Positions 2,495-61,600 of a stretch of DNA of 64,000 bases are shown here, in pieces (positions within the stretch are counted from its first letter, which is position 1; each line of letters opens with the position of its first letter). The notes under the pieces are model-generated. The model saw only the letters and a program-made list of their open reading frames with translations, searched no databases and had not been told where the DNA came from. The stretch spans positions 56,911,074 through 56,975,073 of the forward strand of contig JASCQW010000162.1 in the NCBI GenBank assembly GCA_030264375.1, written 5' to 3'. The DNA comes from Carcharhinus longimanus. Taxonomy: Eukaryota. The position numbers and the translations under genes are program-made.

Positions 2495-3200
2495 CCAGGT
2501 CACTCCCACTTCAGTGGGGCTGCAGCAGACAACCTTTGTTGTAATTGTCACAGCACATAGATCTTGACTAGGCCCTCAATGTCAGCATCAATGCCAGGTC
2601 ACAAGACATGACTTCTGGTGAGTGAGCATCTTCATCTTAGATATACCCTGATGGGCACTGCAATTCAGCAAAGAACAATTTTCTTCCTGGTACAGGGATG
2701 ACTACTCTTGCTCCCTGAAGTATGATGCCATCTTCACAACTTTTATACATAGTATGGTTTCACCTCTTCAAAAAAAAAACTCATTGGCCCAATCAGTATT
2801 CTATGCCTCACTATGGACAACAGCAGATCTCTGCTGGTCCAATATTTGATTTGCTGAGCCAAAACTGGCAAAGTGTCTAAGAAGTTCAACACTATAACCA
2901 CTCTCTGGTAAAGACAAGCAACTAAGCACATCTGCATTTTGTGATATGTGTTCCAGGCCTGTGTTTGAATATATATTTGTAGAGGGACAGAATCAATGCC
3001 CAACACTGAATTCTTGCTAGTGTGTTTGGCAGAATAGCCTGGTCATCTTTAAGGAAATTCAAAAGTGGTTTGTGGGCTGTAACAGTGATAAAGTGTCTCC
3101 CATACATGTATTGATGGAACTTCTTTACTCCATATACTATTGACAAGCCTTGTTTTTCAATCTGGGAGTAGTTTTTTTGACCTCTGAGAGGGTTCTCAAG
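2495..3200 (-). mobile_element. Ty3/Gypsy pol remnant (RNase H to integrase N-terminal region), frameshifted
   Basis: Translation GVKKFHQYMYGRHFITVTAHKPLL...ARIQCWALILSLYKY..HRPG matches Gypsy RNase H; downstream EDGIILQGARVVIP and PGIDADIE-like segments. Confidence 0.9.
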
Positions 3201-3217
3201 CTGTACTCTTTAGGTCT

Positions 3218-13328: not shown

Positions 13329-13593
13329 GACAGCGCCAGGGGCCCGGGTTTGATTCTGATCTCGGTCACTGTCTGTGTGGAGTTTGCACATTCTCCCTGT
13401 GTCTGCGTGGGTTTCCTCCCACAGTCCGAAAGGTGTGCAGGATAGGTGAACTGGCCATGATAAATTGACCTTAGTGTCAGAGGATTAGCACGGTAAGTGT
13501 GTGAGGTTTGCAGGAATGGGGCCTGGGTGAGATTGTGGTCTGTACAGACTAGATGGACTGACTGGCCTCCTTCTGTACTGTAGGGATTCTATG
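13329..13593 (+). mobile_element. HE1-type SINE (5' truncated)
   Basis: CAGCGCCAGGGG..GGTCACTGTCTGTGTGGAGTTTGCAC...TGTAGGGATTCTATG. Confidence 0.85.
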
Positions 13594-14656
13594 AAAGGCA
13601 TTTTGTACACAGCACAGGAACAAGCCATTTGGCCCAACCAGTCCACACTGGTGTTGACAAATTCCAGCTCAAGTTTCCTTGTTAAGAGGAGTCAGTTCCT
13701 GTTCTTATTTGTCACACTGAACTGGAATGCTTAGAGGGTGTTTAAATTAGTAGCTGAATAATACATGGGGAACAAAAACACTTGTGAGGCATTTACTGCT
13801 TTTCCCTGTCACTGGCCAATGGAATATAGGAACATATTGGAGCATGAATAGGCCATTTGGCTCTTTCAACCTATTTCTCAGCTCAATAAAATTACAATGA
13901 GCCGACTTTGGAACAGGTAGTGACGCTGCTAGTTTACACTCAATAAATGTTTTTACCTATGAACGTGTTACCAGTAGTCTGGGTATTGACTGGGTTCACT
14001 TGGCAGCATCTTTTTGCAAAACAGGTCTGCCAAACCAACGGAGTGGAAAATCAGTACCTCGTTCTCAAATTGAAAAAGGTTCAGCTGATTTTTCAATGAT
14101 TCTCAACAACCCTTTGGTACTTTGCATGGGCAAAGGAGTGACTTCAGAAAAAAATTAACTTGCTCATTTGTGGAGCAGGAAGTAAATTGTATTCTATGCA
14201 TCAAATCTGGTTCACATATCAAACTATTTTACAAACTTCTGGGAATAATCATACTGTGTTTCAAGAAGAAAACTTTGTATTTGAGCAACTTCAATGTGTG
14301 CACCACATATGTTTGCAAGTATGAAATATAGATAAATCTTTGAACCGATTAAGCAATTTTCACTTTTCAAACAGGAAGTAAGATTGTTGCCACAGGATCT
14401 GATAAGAGTTGGTGATGTTTTCTGCCCTACTTTATTTAGTTTATTATTTAAAATATTATTAGGAGGATTAAAATATTATTAGGAGGGATTATTATTTAAA
14501 AGGCGAAAAGCTGCAGCATGCTACGGTGCAGAGGGACCTGGGGGTCCTTGTGCACGNNNNNNNNNNNNNNNNNNNNNNNNNNNNNNNNNNNNNNNNNNNN
14601 NNNNNNNNNNNNNNNNNNNNNNNNNNNNNNNNNNNNNNNNNNNNNNNNNNNNNNNN

Positions 14657-18050: not shown

Positions 18051-18065
18051 TAATCCAAACAATCC

Positions 18066-18300
18066 TGATCACTGTCTCTGTGGAGTTTGTATGTTCTCCC
18101 ATGTTCTCTGGATGCTCCAGTTTCCTCCCACAGTCCAAATGCTGTGCAGGTTAAGTTGATTGGCCGTGCTAAATTAACCCTAGTGTCAGGGGGATTAGCA
18201 GGGTAAATATGAGGTGTTACAGAATTAGGGCCTGGGTGGGATTGTGGTCAGTGCAGTCTTGATAGGCTGAATGGCCTCCCTCTAGGGTTCTAGAATTCTA
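18066..18300 (+). mobile_element. HE1-type SINE (5' truncated)
   Basis: TCACTGTCTCTGTGGAGTTTG core and HE1 tail. Confidence 0.85.
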
Positions 18301-19829
18301 CATATCATTAACACACACTTTCTAGAGCCAAGAGGATAAACATAAAGCCTGCTCCTGGACCTACCTCTGGTTCTGTAACTCGAGCACTGAAGACAAGGAT
18401 ACTGGTAGATGATTGCTCCTCTGAACCTTCCTCCCCCCTGTACAAAACTGACTGGGGCCACTCAACCCCATCTGATGAAAGGGATAGATGAGATTATCAA
18501 CTCAGCTAAATTATACCTTTTTATCCTGACAAAACCAGCAAAATGATTCTATTCAATAAAGAATGGATTTCAAATCCATAGTATTCTGTCTCCAGTATGA
18601 GCCAGTAGCAAAGGTCACCACAGGTAAAGGAGAATCAGAGAGCCACATTATCTGCACTTTAAATGAGTGTCTATGCTGATTAAATCAGTGAGCCCTCAAA
18701 CGAGGTACAGAGATCACAGTACGTGATTTTCTCACACCCATTCCAAGTGATGCAGACAGCACACCAGCATCATGCTGGTTGTTCATTATAATGATTGTAG
18801 CCTGCAACCCAGTGATGAATGCACTGCTGAGTGACTGCGCACCTCAGCAGGGGCGCCCAAGTTTGTGCAAGACCAGTGCCTTAAAGCAAGCCTATAATAC
18901 TTAAAGCCAGACTGCATCTCTTAAAGAAGTGCACACTGACTGCAGAAAAGGTTGAAACTGGTTCAAGAACAGCTAAAACCAATAAGAACCTATAGGAATT
19001 GCATAACATGCCACAACGTTCTCAGGTGCTACACTAGATGCCTTAAGGTTTAGGAGTTGGGGAGAGATTCTCTTCCATCAAGCAGGCGTTAAGGCAGTAG
19101 GATCACATAGCAAAAGACATTGATGCAATTCTGAATAGAGTTCATTTATCTCACATGGTCAGTGAATACATCTGCTCCCAACATCACCATGAGCCTCACA
19201 CACTGTTCCATTACTGCACCCCCTTCTCCCTGTATCTCTCTCAGTCATAAATCACATCTAACTTTCTCAGCGTAACCACAGTCTCACACACACAGCATTG
19301 ATACCAGCTGCATAGTCACATCTCTACTTGCATAATCACAACCTACACATATTGCCAGCTATTAAACAGTGGCAGGCATATCCCCTAAACACAGCGAATG
19401 TAAACTTTCCTTTCTAACATGGAACACAGTAACCCATGATAAGAATCAAAAGCAGCTAACAGGTGTGCAGGAAGGCAGCTCCATTGTGGAGATGGCTTGA
19501 AAATAATTGCAATGGCCTGCGTTAACACAGGGGCCAGTGGTGGGGCTGAAACTATTGGGAATGACAGTACATTCCTATCTAATCTACCTTCTCAGATCTC
19601 ACCCTCATTCCCCAATTTCTTATGACTTACTATTGGCTGACAGTGTATCCATACCTCTCTTCCCTTTTGCCAGATAGGAAAGCAGAGTTGAAACCCAACT
19701 TCATGTTCAATGATAAAGCAAACTTGGCAGGTCATATAGTCTACTGTTGCTCCTTTCTTGCATTCTTGTGTTCTCACCCCAATCAAGGAAGCAGTACTCA
19801 GCAAGCTGATGGGGCTATGGGCTGACATG

Positions 19830-35764: not shown

Positions 35765-35959
35765 ATCATAATTCTCAGCCTTTTGGCTCAGATCAAGCTG
35801 AAGATGGGCTGCAATGCCTTTCTTGTCAACTTGGATCTTGTTTGTCTCCCTTAAATTAGATTCAATTTGAATTTGGTTTTTGGAGCAAGGAAGGAGATGG
35901 ATTTGGGTCTGCCTTGTCCACCCTGAGCATTGGCTTTGTGACTTTAAGAATGCAGTAAA
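35765..35959 (+). ncRNA. Divergent U2 snRNA-derived element (retrocopy, U2-derived SINE or variant snRNA)
   Basis: TTCTCAGCCTTTTGGCTCAGATCAAG matches vertebrate U2 nt 6-31 at 24/26; colinear blocks TTCTTGTCA, TTTTTGGAGCA, GGAGATGGA, GTCCAC, GCAT, TGCAGTA follow in U2 order. Confidence 0.85.
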
Positions 35960-37037
35960 AATTTGTTTAAAACCTGGCAGTGGGGGCTTGGATTTTGGAG
36001 TTATGTTTTTGCAATGACTTGATCTGCCTTATTTTTGTTACATTCTTTTGTAACTTGTTTCCATCACCACCACTACCCTGCAGTCCACACAACCCCATTT
36101 TCAGATTGGGTGGGCACCCCCTGCAATTTCCATTTGTGGATCCCTGGGTGCTCCAATTCCCATTGCAGCAATAAATATGCCTCTGGTTATCCACTCATTT
36201 TTGAGGAGATGTATAGAATCTGAGTGGGGCTGGGAGTTGGCAGGGGAGTCAGTATTTGAAAGAGGCAGGGTGGAAATCGGTGGCAAATCTGCTTACAACA
36301 GAGGTAAATTGCTCAATCTCAAAACACCCAAGCAGACCGAGCACAATTACCCAGTCATGCCTTAAGTAATCTGTCTCTGCTGGCTGCTCTTTGCAAGGAA
36401 GGCAGTCAAAGTGATGCTGTCTCCTCCAGGCTACATCTAAACAAGATTAATGGCAGAGTCAAACTATTTTTACGTATACTGGTGACCACAGGAGTGAACT
36501 TTTATGCTACTGGATCGTTCCAAACTACCACAGGGGATATATAATCTGATTACTGAATTAGCATTGTACCAATGCATATACTAAGTGACAGCGAAACCTC
36601 TCAACACTTACCCAAGGAAAAACAGCCAACAAGTCAAAAGGACGGTTTAATCTATTCAAACACCATAAACCGGTACATCCTAAAGTGCGTCAGTATGGTT
36701 CTCTCAGTAGAAGTGAAAGTGTGTCCTCCTTAAATGTTGTAACAGGTTTTCCCGAGTTTATATTTTCCCATGTGGATGAAAAGTAAGGTAGAGATTGAAC
36801 CTTAGAAGCATTTTCCGTTAAATTTTCATGTCTAAATTATTATTTTATGCTTGCTTTTTGCTTCAAAGATAAAGCCTAACTCAAGTGAGGAAACAACAGA
36901 GAAAGATGAGGGGGTGGGGGGGTGGAAATGGTGTGCAGACATCATGGGGGAAAAGCATTGGAAAAGTCCTCAGGCACAGAGGCAGTTAATCCAGACCTGT
37001 TGTTTCCAAAGTAGGCAGCTCACAAGATTTGCATTAC

Positions 37038-37972: not shown

Positions 37973-38988
37973 ATGCCTGAAAACTCAGAGCCTCTGGGGT
38001 ACAGATTCACAGCCCTCAGAGTGAACAAATTTCACCGCCTCTTAATTACCTCTGGTTCTACACTCTTGACACAGGGGAAAGAGCCTTTCAACACATACCC
38101 TGTTAAGCTTTCTAAGAATTTTACATATTTCAAAGACATCAGCTCTCATCTCCAGAATATAGGGTCATTCTACTCAATCTCTCCTTTTAATCAGCCTCTC
38201 ATCCTGGAAAGCAATCTCTCAAACCCTTGGTGCACCTGTTGGTGAGAAATACACCATTCTTGAGGTTACGAAACCAAATTTGCGCGCGGTGAAAATAACT
38301 TGCAGGTGATTAAAAGAAGCTTTTTACAGCAATATTTTAATCAAAACTATTTTAATCAATTTTTTAAACTTACTTTGGAGAAAGGCAGAAGGCTTTCAGA
38401 ACCTATTTTTCCATTTATTTATATTTAGATTTTAAAGCAATTGCTGTTTTCTGTGGAGATTTAACTTTGAAGTTGTCCCAAACTCTTTTACAACACCAAA
38501 TCTCCGGAAGATCACTCACACTACAATTGAGAGTCCCAAGGATTTCCATCTCCATTCCAGTGCTACCAAATTGCAACATCTCTCCTGCTGCAGTTAAACT
38601 CCTCAAACCTCCCCAATATTATCAAAACCCCAGAATTCCTTCCCCAACAGCAGTGGAGGTGTTTCTTTCAGAATGTCCCCTTCTCTTGTTGGGTTTGCCA
38701 TGTGCTGGATACAAAGATTCTCTTGAATGCATTTTAAGAATTCTGAGTCCTCTAATTTTAACGCTGAATTTATCCCAGTTGATACTCAGATAGCTAAAAT
38801 CCCCTGTTATCGCTACATTATTAACCAGGACTTTTCCTGTCCCACCTGCCATGGCACCAGAAATTCTTGCCCAAAGTCAACAGACCTTTGGCTAATCCAT
38901 CAAATTTTCCGTCCCAGCTGCAACAATTTCCACATGAATAGGGCTGTAATATTTAGACCATTGGCCAAAATCTTCCATCTTCCTTTAT

Positions 38989-39207: not shown

Positions 39208-39800
39208 CCTGATTTGATTTATTATTGTCACATGTACTGGGATACAATGAATAGTTTTGTTTCTTGTGCGCTATACAGACAAAACATGCCGTTCACTGAG
39301 TCCATAGGGAAGAAGGAAAGGATAGAGTGCAGAATATAATGTTAAGTTACAGATAAGGTGAAGAGAAAGATCAGCTTAGTGCATTAATTATTCTACACTA
39401 ATAAAAGACCAGAGGCACATTGGCACAGTGGTTAGCACTTCTGCCTCACAGCGCCAGGGACCCAGGTTCGATTCCCGGCTTGGGTCACTGTCAGTGTGGA
39501 GTTTACACAGTCTCCCATGTCTGCGTGGGTTTCCCCCAAGTGTTCTGGCTTCCACCCACTGTCCAAAGATGTGCAGGTTATGTGAATTGGCCATGCTAAA
39601 TTGCTCCTTAGTGTCAGGGGGACTAGCAGGGTAAACCCTTGGGGTTATGGGGATAGGGCCTGGATGAGATTGTGATCGGTACAGACTCGATGAACCAAAT
39701 GGCCTCCTTCTGCACTGTAGAATTCTAATTCTATATGTTAGGTCCACTCAAAAGTCTGATGGCAGCAGGGAAGAAGCTGTTCTTGAGTCAATTGGTACAT
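39208..39800 (-). mobile_element. Rex/Babar-like 3' end interrupted by HE1 SINE
   Basis: Homologous to 20423-20660; resumes after the SINE at GGTCCACTCAAAAGTCTGATGG. Confidence 0.8.
39412..39735 (+). mobile_element. Full-length HE1-type V-SINE
   Basis: A box TGGCACAGTGG, B box GGTTCGATTCC, V-domain core, GCACTGTAGAATTCTA tail. Confidence 0.92.
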
Positions 39801-42046: not shown

Positions 42047-42900
42047 AGTATGGATATTTTAGTTTATGGTATTAAAAAACAGGCAATTTGAGTGTTATAT
42101 TCATATTGATATTACTTAAACATTACTCTGCATCAGGTGAATATAACAAAACTAAGAAATAAGAATCAAAGTTGAATCAATATCACCCATTTCACTCAAG
42201 CAACTGACTCTAAATTACAACCCATATTTTTAATACTAGTCAGCGCACTTGTTGAGATGGCTAGTGTGCAATATAAAGTAAGGAAAACAGCTCAAGCTCA
42301 ATTCTCTTTCCAGTTGAATTAGACTGGAGATCTGCCTCCGCACCCTGACTGAGTTTTGGAGGGCAGTGGTAAACTACCACTGGCAAAAATTGCCAAGAAA
42401 GCTGCTGAGAATGAAAGATGAACATGCAATGAACCGTGGACCTGCTTTCAGGCACAGGATGCATCCCATACACCTGCAATTTCTCATACTACATGTTGAG
42501 CTTTATAGGTCAGTTATCAAATTTATTATCATTGAAAAAAATCCAATTATAGCACCACCTACTGGCATCACAGGGAATGATTAAAGCTAAATGTAAATGA
42601 TAAGGACATTTTCCCATGAGAATGCTTATAGGAATGTTTACATAGGACTTTTCATTGGGAAAACCAGATGGTTTTAAGAATTTTAATGGATGCTAGTATT
42701 TTTTAATGCTTATTGGAAGACTGACCACCTTGTGCTGTTGCACTGAAACCAATGTTTGCTTTTTTTGTGTAATTTTAAAATATTGATTTAAACTATTGAT
42801 TAATATTTCCCAATTTGTAATAAATGAGCATCAAAATATATCCCATAAAACATATTTTGTAGTTCTTTAGATAACTGTTAAAGTCCCTTCTGTTATATAT

Positions 42901-43378
42901 CGGTGGCACAGTGGTTAGCATTGCCGTCTCGCGGCACCAGGGAACTGGCTTCGATTCTGGTATCGGGTCATTGAGTGTGTAGAGTTTGCACATTCTCCCT
43001 ATGTCTGTGTGGGTTTCTTCCAGGGGCTCCAGTTTCTTCCCATACTCCAAAGATGTTCAGGTTAGGTTGATTGGTCATGGTAAATTGCCATTTAGTNNNN
43101 NNNNNNNNNNNNNNNNNNNNNNNNNNNNNNNNNNNNNNNNNNNNNNNNNNNNNNNNNNNNNNNNNNNNNNNNNNNNNNNNNNNNNNNNNNNNNNNNCCAT
43201 ACTCCAAAGATGTTCAGGTTAGGTTGATTGGTCATGGTAAATTGCCCTTTAGTGTCGGGGACTAGCAGGGTAAATAGGTGGCATTAAGGAGAGGGGGTCT
43301 GGGTGGGATTGTGGATGGTGAAGACTTGATGGGCCAAATGGCCTCCGTCTGCACTGTATGCTATGATTCTATGATTCT
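42901..43378 (+). mobile_element. HE1-type SINE spanning an artefactual gap
   Basis: GGTGGCACAGTGGTTAGC head; (ATGATTCT)n tail; sequence duplicated on both sides of the N run. Confidence 0.88.
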
Positions 43379-52744: not shown

Positions 52745-53041
52745 GGTGGCACGGTGGCACAGTGGATAGCACTGCTGCCTCAGAGCAATTGTGATTTGGG
52801 TTCAATTCTGGCCTTGGACGTCTTTCTGTGCAGAGTTTGCACATTCTCCCCATGTCTGCATGGGTTTCCTCCCACAGTACAAAGATGTGCACGTTACGTG
52901 GATTGGCCATGCTAAATTGCCCTTTAGTGTCAGGGGGAAAATACATGGGGTTGTGGGGATAGGGCCTGGGTGGGAATGTGGTTGGTGTAGGCTTGATGGG
53001 CCAAATGGCTCCTTCTGCACTGTAGTGATTCTATGATTCTA
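52745..53041 (+). mobile_element. Full-length HE1-type SINE
   Basis: GGTGGCACGGTGGCACAGTGG head; GATTCTATGATTCT tail. Confidence 0.92.
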
Positions 53042-61233: not shown

Positions 61234-61600
61234 GCAGCGTGGTGACATAGTGGTTAGCATTGCTGCCTCACAGCGCAAGGGACCCAGATTCAATTGTGGC
61301 TTTGGGTGACTTTTTGTGTAAAGTCTGCATGTTCTCCCTATGTCTACATGGGTCTCCTCTGGGTGCTTCGGTTTCCTCTCACAGTTCAAAGATGTACAGG
61401 TTAGGTGGATTGGCCATGCCAAATTGCTCCTTAGTGCCCAAATATGTGTAGGTTAGGTGGATTAGTCATGGGAAATATGTGGGTTACAAGCATAGAGTGA
61501 GGGGGGGGAGGAGTCTGGATAAAATACTCTTTCAGAGCATCAGTATAGACTCTATGGGCTGGATGGCCTCTTTCTGCAGTGTAGGGATTCTATGGTTCTG
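61234..61600 (+). mobile_element. HE1-type SINE
   Basis: GTGGTTAGCATTGCTGCCTCACAGCG head; GTAGGGATTCTATG tail. Confidence 0.88.

Follow-up and report, generated by a model that had tools for sequence, protein, structure and literature searches.

An old U2-derived retroposon copy in a shark genome carries a hairpin likely selected in the source RNAs of its family

The window, a 64,000-nucleotide stretch of the Carcharhinus longimanus genome, contains a copy of a short U2-derived retroposon, designated family A, at 35771..35960 on the forward strand. The copy was identified by profile search, by the Rfam U2 model and by matches elsewhere in the genome. A profile built from other family A copies recovers it by nhmmer with an E value of 6e-56, and relative to a consensus of 30 copies it is substituted at 8.4% of positions and carries deletions of 11 nt and 1 nt. 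The Rfam U2 model (RF00004) scores 30.6 bits at 35768-35947, short of its gathering score of 46 bits, and the whole window yields no Rfam match at gathering scores. Four weak non-U2 Rfam matches near the locus (E 0.4-9.5) were taken as chance. A scan of 149 reading frames, comprising most of the 160 N-free frames of at least 72 aa and one other, identified no host gene, a set that short exons would escape; it gave two matches only, both read as repeat-derived. An RT RNase H-like domain fragment lies at 2925-3209 on the reverse strand (PF17917, E 3.5e-14), probably part of a broken LTR-retrotransposon. The window is rich in repeats, and a large share of it consists of LINE 3' ends and numerous copies of an abundant SINE-like repeat, for example at 13359-13611, 18062-18305, 39413-39748, 42897-43372, 52748-53036 and 61236-61597. 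A weak match to the family A 3' end is also present at 38250-38291 on the reverse strand (E 0.0025).

Family A is colinear with U2 through stem III, with two exceptions: 12 nt (U2 22-33) are duplicated, and another 12 nt have been inserted ahead of the Sm site. The U2 5' head of the window copy, located by alignment to the U2 model and to the host U2 locus L031, occupies 35768..35789 and corresponds to the stem I region, approximately U2 nt 1-23. It is followed by the 5' arm of an outer stem (35790..35798), assigned to U2 24-32 by comparison with host U2 and by the reconstruction described below. This arm includes G25-C28, which pair with U6 in U2/U6 helix Ia of real U2 (PMC13019295). The 5' arm of an inner stem (35800..35809) is built from the duplicated U2 22-31, the 5' strand of the U2 branchpoint-interacting stem-loop (BSL), and contains private pair-breaking changes at 35800 and 35809. 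The terminal loop (35810..35816) derives from U2 32-38. Its branch-point recognition sequence GUAGUA has become GCAAUG in the window copy and the consensus alike, and the loop varies freely between subfamilies. The inner stem 3' arm (35817..35825) represents U2 39-48, the BSL 3' strand, and has lost one base after 35820, where other copies have A. A conserved UCA internal loop and the outer stem 3' arm, both from altered U2 49-62, complete the hairpin at 35826..35838.

The remainder of the element is a reduced U2 3' part. Stem IIa is lost, with 2 of 6 Watson-Crick pairs in the family A consensus versus 6 of 6 in host U2, and the 11-nt deletion removes the stem IIb sequence from the window copy. 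The Sm-like site (35876-35882) carries an A-to-G change in the window copy, and GG precedes the U run in 31 of the 43 copies in which the site was read. A weak A/U-rich 12-bp hairpin is predicted over this site at 35853..35883, with z scores of -2.46 for the window copy and -1.52 for the consensus; 45 of 500 shuffles of the consensus were as stable, and the hairpin was set aside as too weak to rely on. The U2 stem III derivative (35893..35924) is still foldable in the consensus (-13.9, versus -15.1 for U2). The 3' end of the element lacks stem-loop IV, in which it resembles the shortened U2 variants L046-L048, and passes into an A/T-rich tail (35925..35972). No target-site duplication is recognisable at the window copy.

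Besides its low score, the window copy lacks GUAGUA, stem IIa, an Sm site of the form AU(4-6)G and stem-loop IV, features of a functional U2 gene. Other U2-like sequences were also encountered. L046, L047 and L048, on three small contigs, are short U2 variants that lack stem-loop IV and share flanks on both sides; they resemble the family A 3' end and possibly form a variant U2 gene family. L032, L033, L034 and L058 are divergent full-length U2-like sequences with different 3' halves, L033 and L058 being of one type. Rfam scores of 181 and 178 bits were recorded for L032-L034. These loci, together with L058, may be variant U2 genes or contamination on small contigs.

The sequence-only reading of this locus had drawn a 49-nt fold-back at 35790-35838, and folding recovers it with all five named helices: AGAUC/GAUCU, AAG/CUU, UGA/UCA, AGA/UCU and GGGC/GCCU. 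Folded alone, the 49-mer has a predicted energy of -16.7 kcal/mol and a z score of -2.50; 3 of 200 shuffles, and 4 of 500 in a second run, were as stable. For a hand-picked segment this is modest evidence by itself. The consensus of 30 copies folds at -22.5 with a z score of -3.66, a stability reached by 1 of 500 shuffles, and host U2 24-62 folds at only -1.8. Because the family consensus folds better than the window copy, the hairpin is not a chance feature of one decayed sequence. In the family register, an inner stem of 10 bp runs without interruption up to a 1x3 internal loop, and the outer stem has 8 bp and a single bulge. Only the window copy has the UGA/UCA and GGGC/GCCU registers, as a consequence of decay at 35799, 35800 and 35809, loss of A after 35820 and a G-to-A change at 35829. 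The window copy ranks 14th in stability among the 30 copies. When its full-length element is folded, another partner is predicted for the outermost AGAU, with 35790-35791 contacting 35923-35924 at a probability of about 0.87. Thus the proposed sequestration of AGAUC holds in the isolated 49-mer and in the full-length consensus, but not clearly in the window copy itself. An HDV-like ribozyme, a kink-turn, an IRE and a SECIS element were not matched by eye, and none came from Rfam.

The hairpin had been described as new and formed by the non-U2 positions of the element. Comparison with U2 amends this description, since duplicated U2 already provides most of the pairing and the inner stem is a known structure. 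The duplicate of U2 22-33 pairs with U2 39-48 in the BSL register. The partner of the original U2 25-32 is altered U2 52-61, and this pairing takes the place of stem IIa. U2 BSL pairs are formed within 25-45 (G25-C45, U27-U43 and C28-G42), and a U43A change repairs the U27-U43 mismatch (PMC13019295). Family A contains the equivalent of U43A. By sequence comparison, the inner stem is a BSL in which the mismatches have been repaired. A reconstructed U2 with the 12-nt duplication and one shared deletion forms 15 of the 18 pairs at -4.8 kcal/mol, and 16 substitutions lead from this ancestor to family A, with 18 of 18 pairs at -20.9 kcal/mol. When the same types of substitution were placed at random positions, a fold as stable arose in only 23 of 20,000 cases and 18 pairs were never reached, in line with the earlier claim that the departures from U2 create pairing. 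The ancestor is a reconstruction and the register was picked after the hairpin was known, so the energy comparison is fairer than the pair count. On these models, U2 supplies the scaffold of the hairpin and the departures from U2 lock the fold.

Family A is a dispersed repeat of old age. A search of the 2.68 Gb genome with the element returned 2,531 candidates, and all 40 that were scored match at 77-100% identity. In 30 aligned loci the similarity extends over about 200 bp, the tail is A/T-rich and the flanks are unrelated; the elements are non-coding and about 190-210 bp long. An 18-mer from the 3' part occurs exactly 526 times versus 0 in the control and is present in 18 of 70 near-full copies sampled, which corresponds to about 2,000 family A copies, likely a floor. 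Target-site-like repeats of at least 12 nt flank 13 of 68 copies, compared with 12 of 600 mismatched pairs, and the U2 13-24 head is detected in 53 of the 68. The copies, like the window copy, end in a mixed A/T tract. The hairpin alone contains 16 diagnostic substitutions common to the copies, which also have insertions in common and thus descend from a source element of their own rather than arising as independent U2 pseudogenes. The 29 other copies average 8.7% from the consensus. For a near-consensus copy, the best relative among 40 scored of 3,862 candidates is 90% identical, and no young or source copy was found in that set. Family A therefore looks old. U2-derived elements are often arranged in tandem or separated by no more than a few hundred bases (L004, L019, L024, L027, L066, L071, L089, L114, L140 and L145), suggesting a preference for earlier copies.

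The age of the window insertion is also apparent in other organisms. Family A words occur in DNA-like sequencing runs with five organism labels, at shares of 0.41-0.59, and joins between flank and element of the window locus are present in contigs from runs X1, X8 and X10, which carry three labels. The 5'-side contigs from the three runs differ by 0, 7 and 36 letters over 549, 349 and 520 bases, placing the insertion before a split of about 7% divergence. This sharing across species is a sign of age, not of constraint.

A second group of elements, family B, was found through the U2 matches L059 and L060; 40 of its 2,460 candidates were scored. Each element contains two tandem hairpin modules whose outer stem is as in family A and whose inner stem is different. 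The layout (L060:1250-1530 and L061-L090) starts with an exact U2 1-39 head, after which come a masking arm, another U2 head, the two modules and an A tail. Mean divergence is 5.1%, indicating that family B is younger than family A. Target-site-like repeats of at least 12 nt flank 5 of 28 copies versus 2 of 600 mismatched pairs, and the 3' ends are A-runs. The re-acquired exact U2 25-39 is covered by the element's own 15-bp arm, and all 6 departures of this arm from a perfect complement give G-U pairs (P 0.017), a test run with the self-masking idea already in mind. Several subfamilies carry the whole hairpin module as a head-to-tail duplicate, joined by an ATGTA linker 33 times and by TTGTTT-type linkers in a few cases. 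The head-masking arms of L104 and L109 are near-exact complements. At L111:1390-1700, L114 and L027:1715-1930, U1 5' heads are joined to the U2-derived hairpin body, similar to the U1 plus U2 layout of SINEU-2.

Genomic copies of family A decay without regard to the fold. Divergence from the consensus is 8.6% at paired positions (90/1,041), 8.4% at unpaired positions (29/347) and 8.8% in the rest of the element. Single changes give G-U and A-C with similar frequency (11 versus 12, 7 versus 13 and 6 versus 6), and compensated double changes are rare (1/246, 1/264 and 0/246 cells). Selection on genomic copies is rejected on the equal decay of paired and unpaired sites and the equal frequency of G-U and A-C. 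The window copy, whose five private hairpin changes include no compensated pair, looks inert by these sequence comparisons. In family B, paired sites are less diverged than unpaired sites (3.0% versus 6.0%). The difference is large for variants shared by at least four copies (0.0% paired versus 2.2%) and smaller for rare changes (2.8% versus 3.8%). A gap that consists largely of shared variants fits constraint on source elements.

Comparison between subfamilies gives a different picture from comparison between copies. The exact outer arms occur 3,461 times in the genome versus 0 in the control. Modules collected from loci, 20 chosen for variety, numbered 148; after exclusion of ten 47-mers and of three rows with shifts or deletions, and with the window copy included, there were 136 rows, in which the constancy of the outer arms is partly built in by the search pattern and filter. 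Among 126 distinct hairpins, 89.1% of cells pair versus 82.2 +/- 0.4 after shuffling, and 188 cells are changed on both sides versus 69 +/- 9 (0 of 500 shuffles reached this number). Slid registers are 30-49% paired. The two-sided cells come from four inner pairs, which alternate between C-G and U-A, between A-U and U-A, between A-U and G-C, and among U-A, G-C and C-G. One pair is G-U in 46, A-U in 43, G-C in 38 and A-C in none of 135 rows; the presence of G-U without A-C points to an RNA read from the plus strand. From A to B1, 10 inner positions differ, three adjacent pairs changing together, and 9 of 10 pairs are kept (P 0.0025 under random change); for A to B2 the corresponding P is 0.038. 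Alongside this covariation of the inner stem, sequence is conserved in the outer stem, the C/UCA internal loop and the bulged G.

Some measures are less favourable. Neither the count of pairs nor that of pair types exceeds what shuffling gives (232 and 391 of 500). RNAalifold returned no structure for all 136 rows, which we suspect reflects its penalty on many decayed rows; on 10 hand-picked rows it predicts the same hairpin with 6 of 18 pairs changed on both sides. The covariation represents few independent events, namely four positions in three large subfamilies and one small one, inherited by many copies. As far as these alignments go, the fold was likely selected in the source RNAs of the retroposon families and not in the genomic copies. 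The sequence-only reading had anticipated that a fortuitous hairpin would be no stronger in the consensus and would lack compensatory changes; the consensus is more stable, and compensatory changes exist between subfamilies. Its suggestion of selection for a different RNA structure is not supported for the window copy, with its neutral decay and middling rank, and is retained for the source elements, where any selection would sit.

Several junctions suggest how such elements are mobilised. Seven exact poly(A) junctions occur at U2 nt 39-40, the insertion site of Keno and Utopia (PMC4640811): two come after family B copies, four after LINE-like tails and one after poly(A) alone. L060 contains one further, near-exact poly(A)-U2 junction, and family B copies lie at U2 nt 39-40 in L059, L060 and L096. 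These junctions are seen for family B and LINE-like tails, and none is shown for family A. Three stretches of 9.6-9.8 kb preceding poly(A)-U2 junctions contained neither an intact partner LINE nor a hairpin module at a LINE end. Two LINE tails have no detectable similarity to families A and B. No promoter or source gene was found for the element by comparing the upstream sequences of 30 family A copies, which share none, or among 40 scored of 3,862 candidates. At L091/L092 (64.14 Mb on one contig), two U2 pieces with poly(A) at nt 38/39 are nested among broken ORF2 fragments, which are presumably L1/Tx1-like; Pfam recognises only zf-RVT, on one of the two L092 fragments. The stretch L059:2240-2100 on the reverse strand, directly upstream of the U2 5' end that carries a family B insertion, is one that we take to be 5S rRNA-like.

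On balance, we favour the reading that the window element is an old, neutrally decaying copy of a U2 retroposon whose hairpin was selected in source RNAs, locking the BSL and hiding the splicing-active region. Source copies would be transcribed, probably from U2 or neighbouring promoters, and their transcripts reverse-transcribed by an L1/Tx1-type (Keno-like) LINE. A locked BSL, together with the lost branch-point sequence, stem IIa and Sm-site A, would keep the transcripts out of U2 snRNP function, and masked transcripts could then accumulate without poisoning splicing. Masking is favoured because all three of these U2 features are gone and because family B re-covers U2 25-39. Against strict masking, 44 of 68 family A copies carry one more U6-pairing segment upstream, which the hairpin is not required to cover, and the window copy's full-length fold pairs the outermost AGAU elsewhere. 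Masking may also be unnecessary once the branch-point sequence is gone. U43A is described as lowering U2 accumulation in human cells (PMC13019295), and an RNA with this change might be unstable.

The main rival to masking accepts the same origin and selection, and regards the hairpin as a handle, bound either by proteins of the partner LINE or by a host RNA-binding protein, through which retrotransposition or RNA stability is increased. It is a possibility of clearly lower standing than masking. A constant outer stem, C/UCA loop and bulged G beside a covarying inner stem and a free terminal loop would fit such a handle, although the constant outer arms are partly an artefact of how hairpins were collected. 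Head-to-tail duplication of the whole module also speaks for it, as masking alone calls for no second module. However, the hairpin lies near the 5' end of the element, away from the 3' tail, and stringent LINEs read their RNA at the 3' tail; that no similarity to two LINE 3' ends was found counts against it as well. A reading without selection on RNA, in which an inverted repeat arose and was repaired by template switching, either in DNA replication or in reverse transcription, and was merely inherited by the subfamilies, is improbable. Template switching is reported to create and maintain hairpins with multi-base compensatory changes (PMC8794818), and both the joint change of three adjacent pairs between A and B1 and the near-exact arms of L104 and L109 would fit it. 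Yet template switching makes Watson-Crick complements and is strand-symmetric, whereas G-U persists or arises here without an A-C counterpart. The asymmetric loop and the bulge are retained, and compensated doubles are rare in genomic copies. Template switching may have made some arms, but it does not explain the G-U bias.

A role of the fold in serving the host, within a functional variant snRNA-like RNA produced by the window locus or by a source gene that escaped detection, is very improbable. Stem I, the Sm-like site and stem III are retained and the insertion is common to other organisms (contigs of X1, X8 and X10, with three labels), as such a role would have it. The window copy nevertheless has five uncompensated hairpin changes and lacks stem IIb through its 11-nt deletion, the 30 copies share no upstream sequence, and the best relative of the near-consensus copy among those scored is only 90% identical.

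Among known systems, the closest are the SINEU-1, -2 and -3 families, described as found only in crocodilians (Kojima 2015, PMC4494074). According to the main text of that paper, SINEU elements, like families A and B, are short, have U2-derived (in some cases U1-derived) heads and have had snRNA pieces added or duplicated at the 5' end; like the shark elements, they include tandem insertions, possess target-site duplications and reach thousands of copies. They have no internal pol III promoter and are likely mobilised by a Tx1-type element (PMC4494074). SINEU-3 keeps the first 32 nt of U2 and is nearly all U2 (PMC4494074), as is family A, but it deletes about 50 nt after U2 nt 32, a region that family A keeps and remodels with the 12-nt duplication. 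The main text describes no conserved hairpin in SINEU (PMC4494074). The target preference reported for SINEU is Mariner-N4_AMi, whereas some family B copies sit in U2. A 3' poly(A) tail is expected of a SINEU element, and the family A tail is mixed A/T. The likeness to SINEU is drawn from its published description. Four features that characterise SINEU are found in the shark elements: an snRNA head, a dispersed non-coding unit of <500 bp, a shared diagnostic structure and family-level target-site duplications. The element is probably, from its sequence organisation, part of a SINEU-like radiation outside crocodilians with the hairpin as its conserved core.

Other comparisons set the element apart from U2 and its known parasites. 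The family A inner stem uses the same positions as the U2 BSL (G25-C45, 27-43 and 28-42), with the branch-point sequence in the loop (PMC13019295). The BSL of U2 is weak and protein-supported and must unwind, whereas that of family A has 10 bp, is repaired, lacks GUAGUA and rests against an outer stem not present in U2. Autonomous U2-targeting non-LTR retrotransposons are represented by Keno (Tx1 clade) and Utopia (PMC4640811); the element described here encodes nothing and most copies lie outside U2 genes. U2 processed pseudogenes (host loci L035-L045) are dispersed, retroposed and U2-derived, as is family A, but they diverge independently from U2, unlike family A with its common hairpin substitutions. 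The literature consulted contains no description of a U2-derived SINE family in sharks, and the family may already be in Repbase or Dfam.

The window copy by itself matters little, being an old shared insertion with no sign of selection. The wider family bears on how snRNA-headed SINEs are transcribed and tolerated, a question left open in the main text of the original SINEU description (PMC4494074). This question becomes testable with small RNA constructs now that a second lineage offers thousands of copies, a covarying hairpin whose every base can be followed back to the BSL, and junctions at the Keno/Utopia site. Human work in which BSL stabilisation by U43A alters U2 accumulation provides a parallel. 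We tentatively propose that cartilaginous fishes may host an independent radiation of snRNA-derived SINEs, whose core would be a locked-BSL module with a fixed internal loop. Such a module might disarm the splicing function of U2, double as a recognition element for a U2-targeting LINE or host factor, and so let elements that lack a promoter of their own draw safely on U2 promoters. If this is true, the subfamilies of the radiation would constitute a natural mutagenesis series for the exit of an snRNA from the snRNP pathway.
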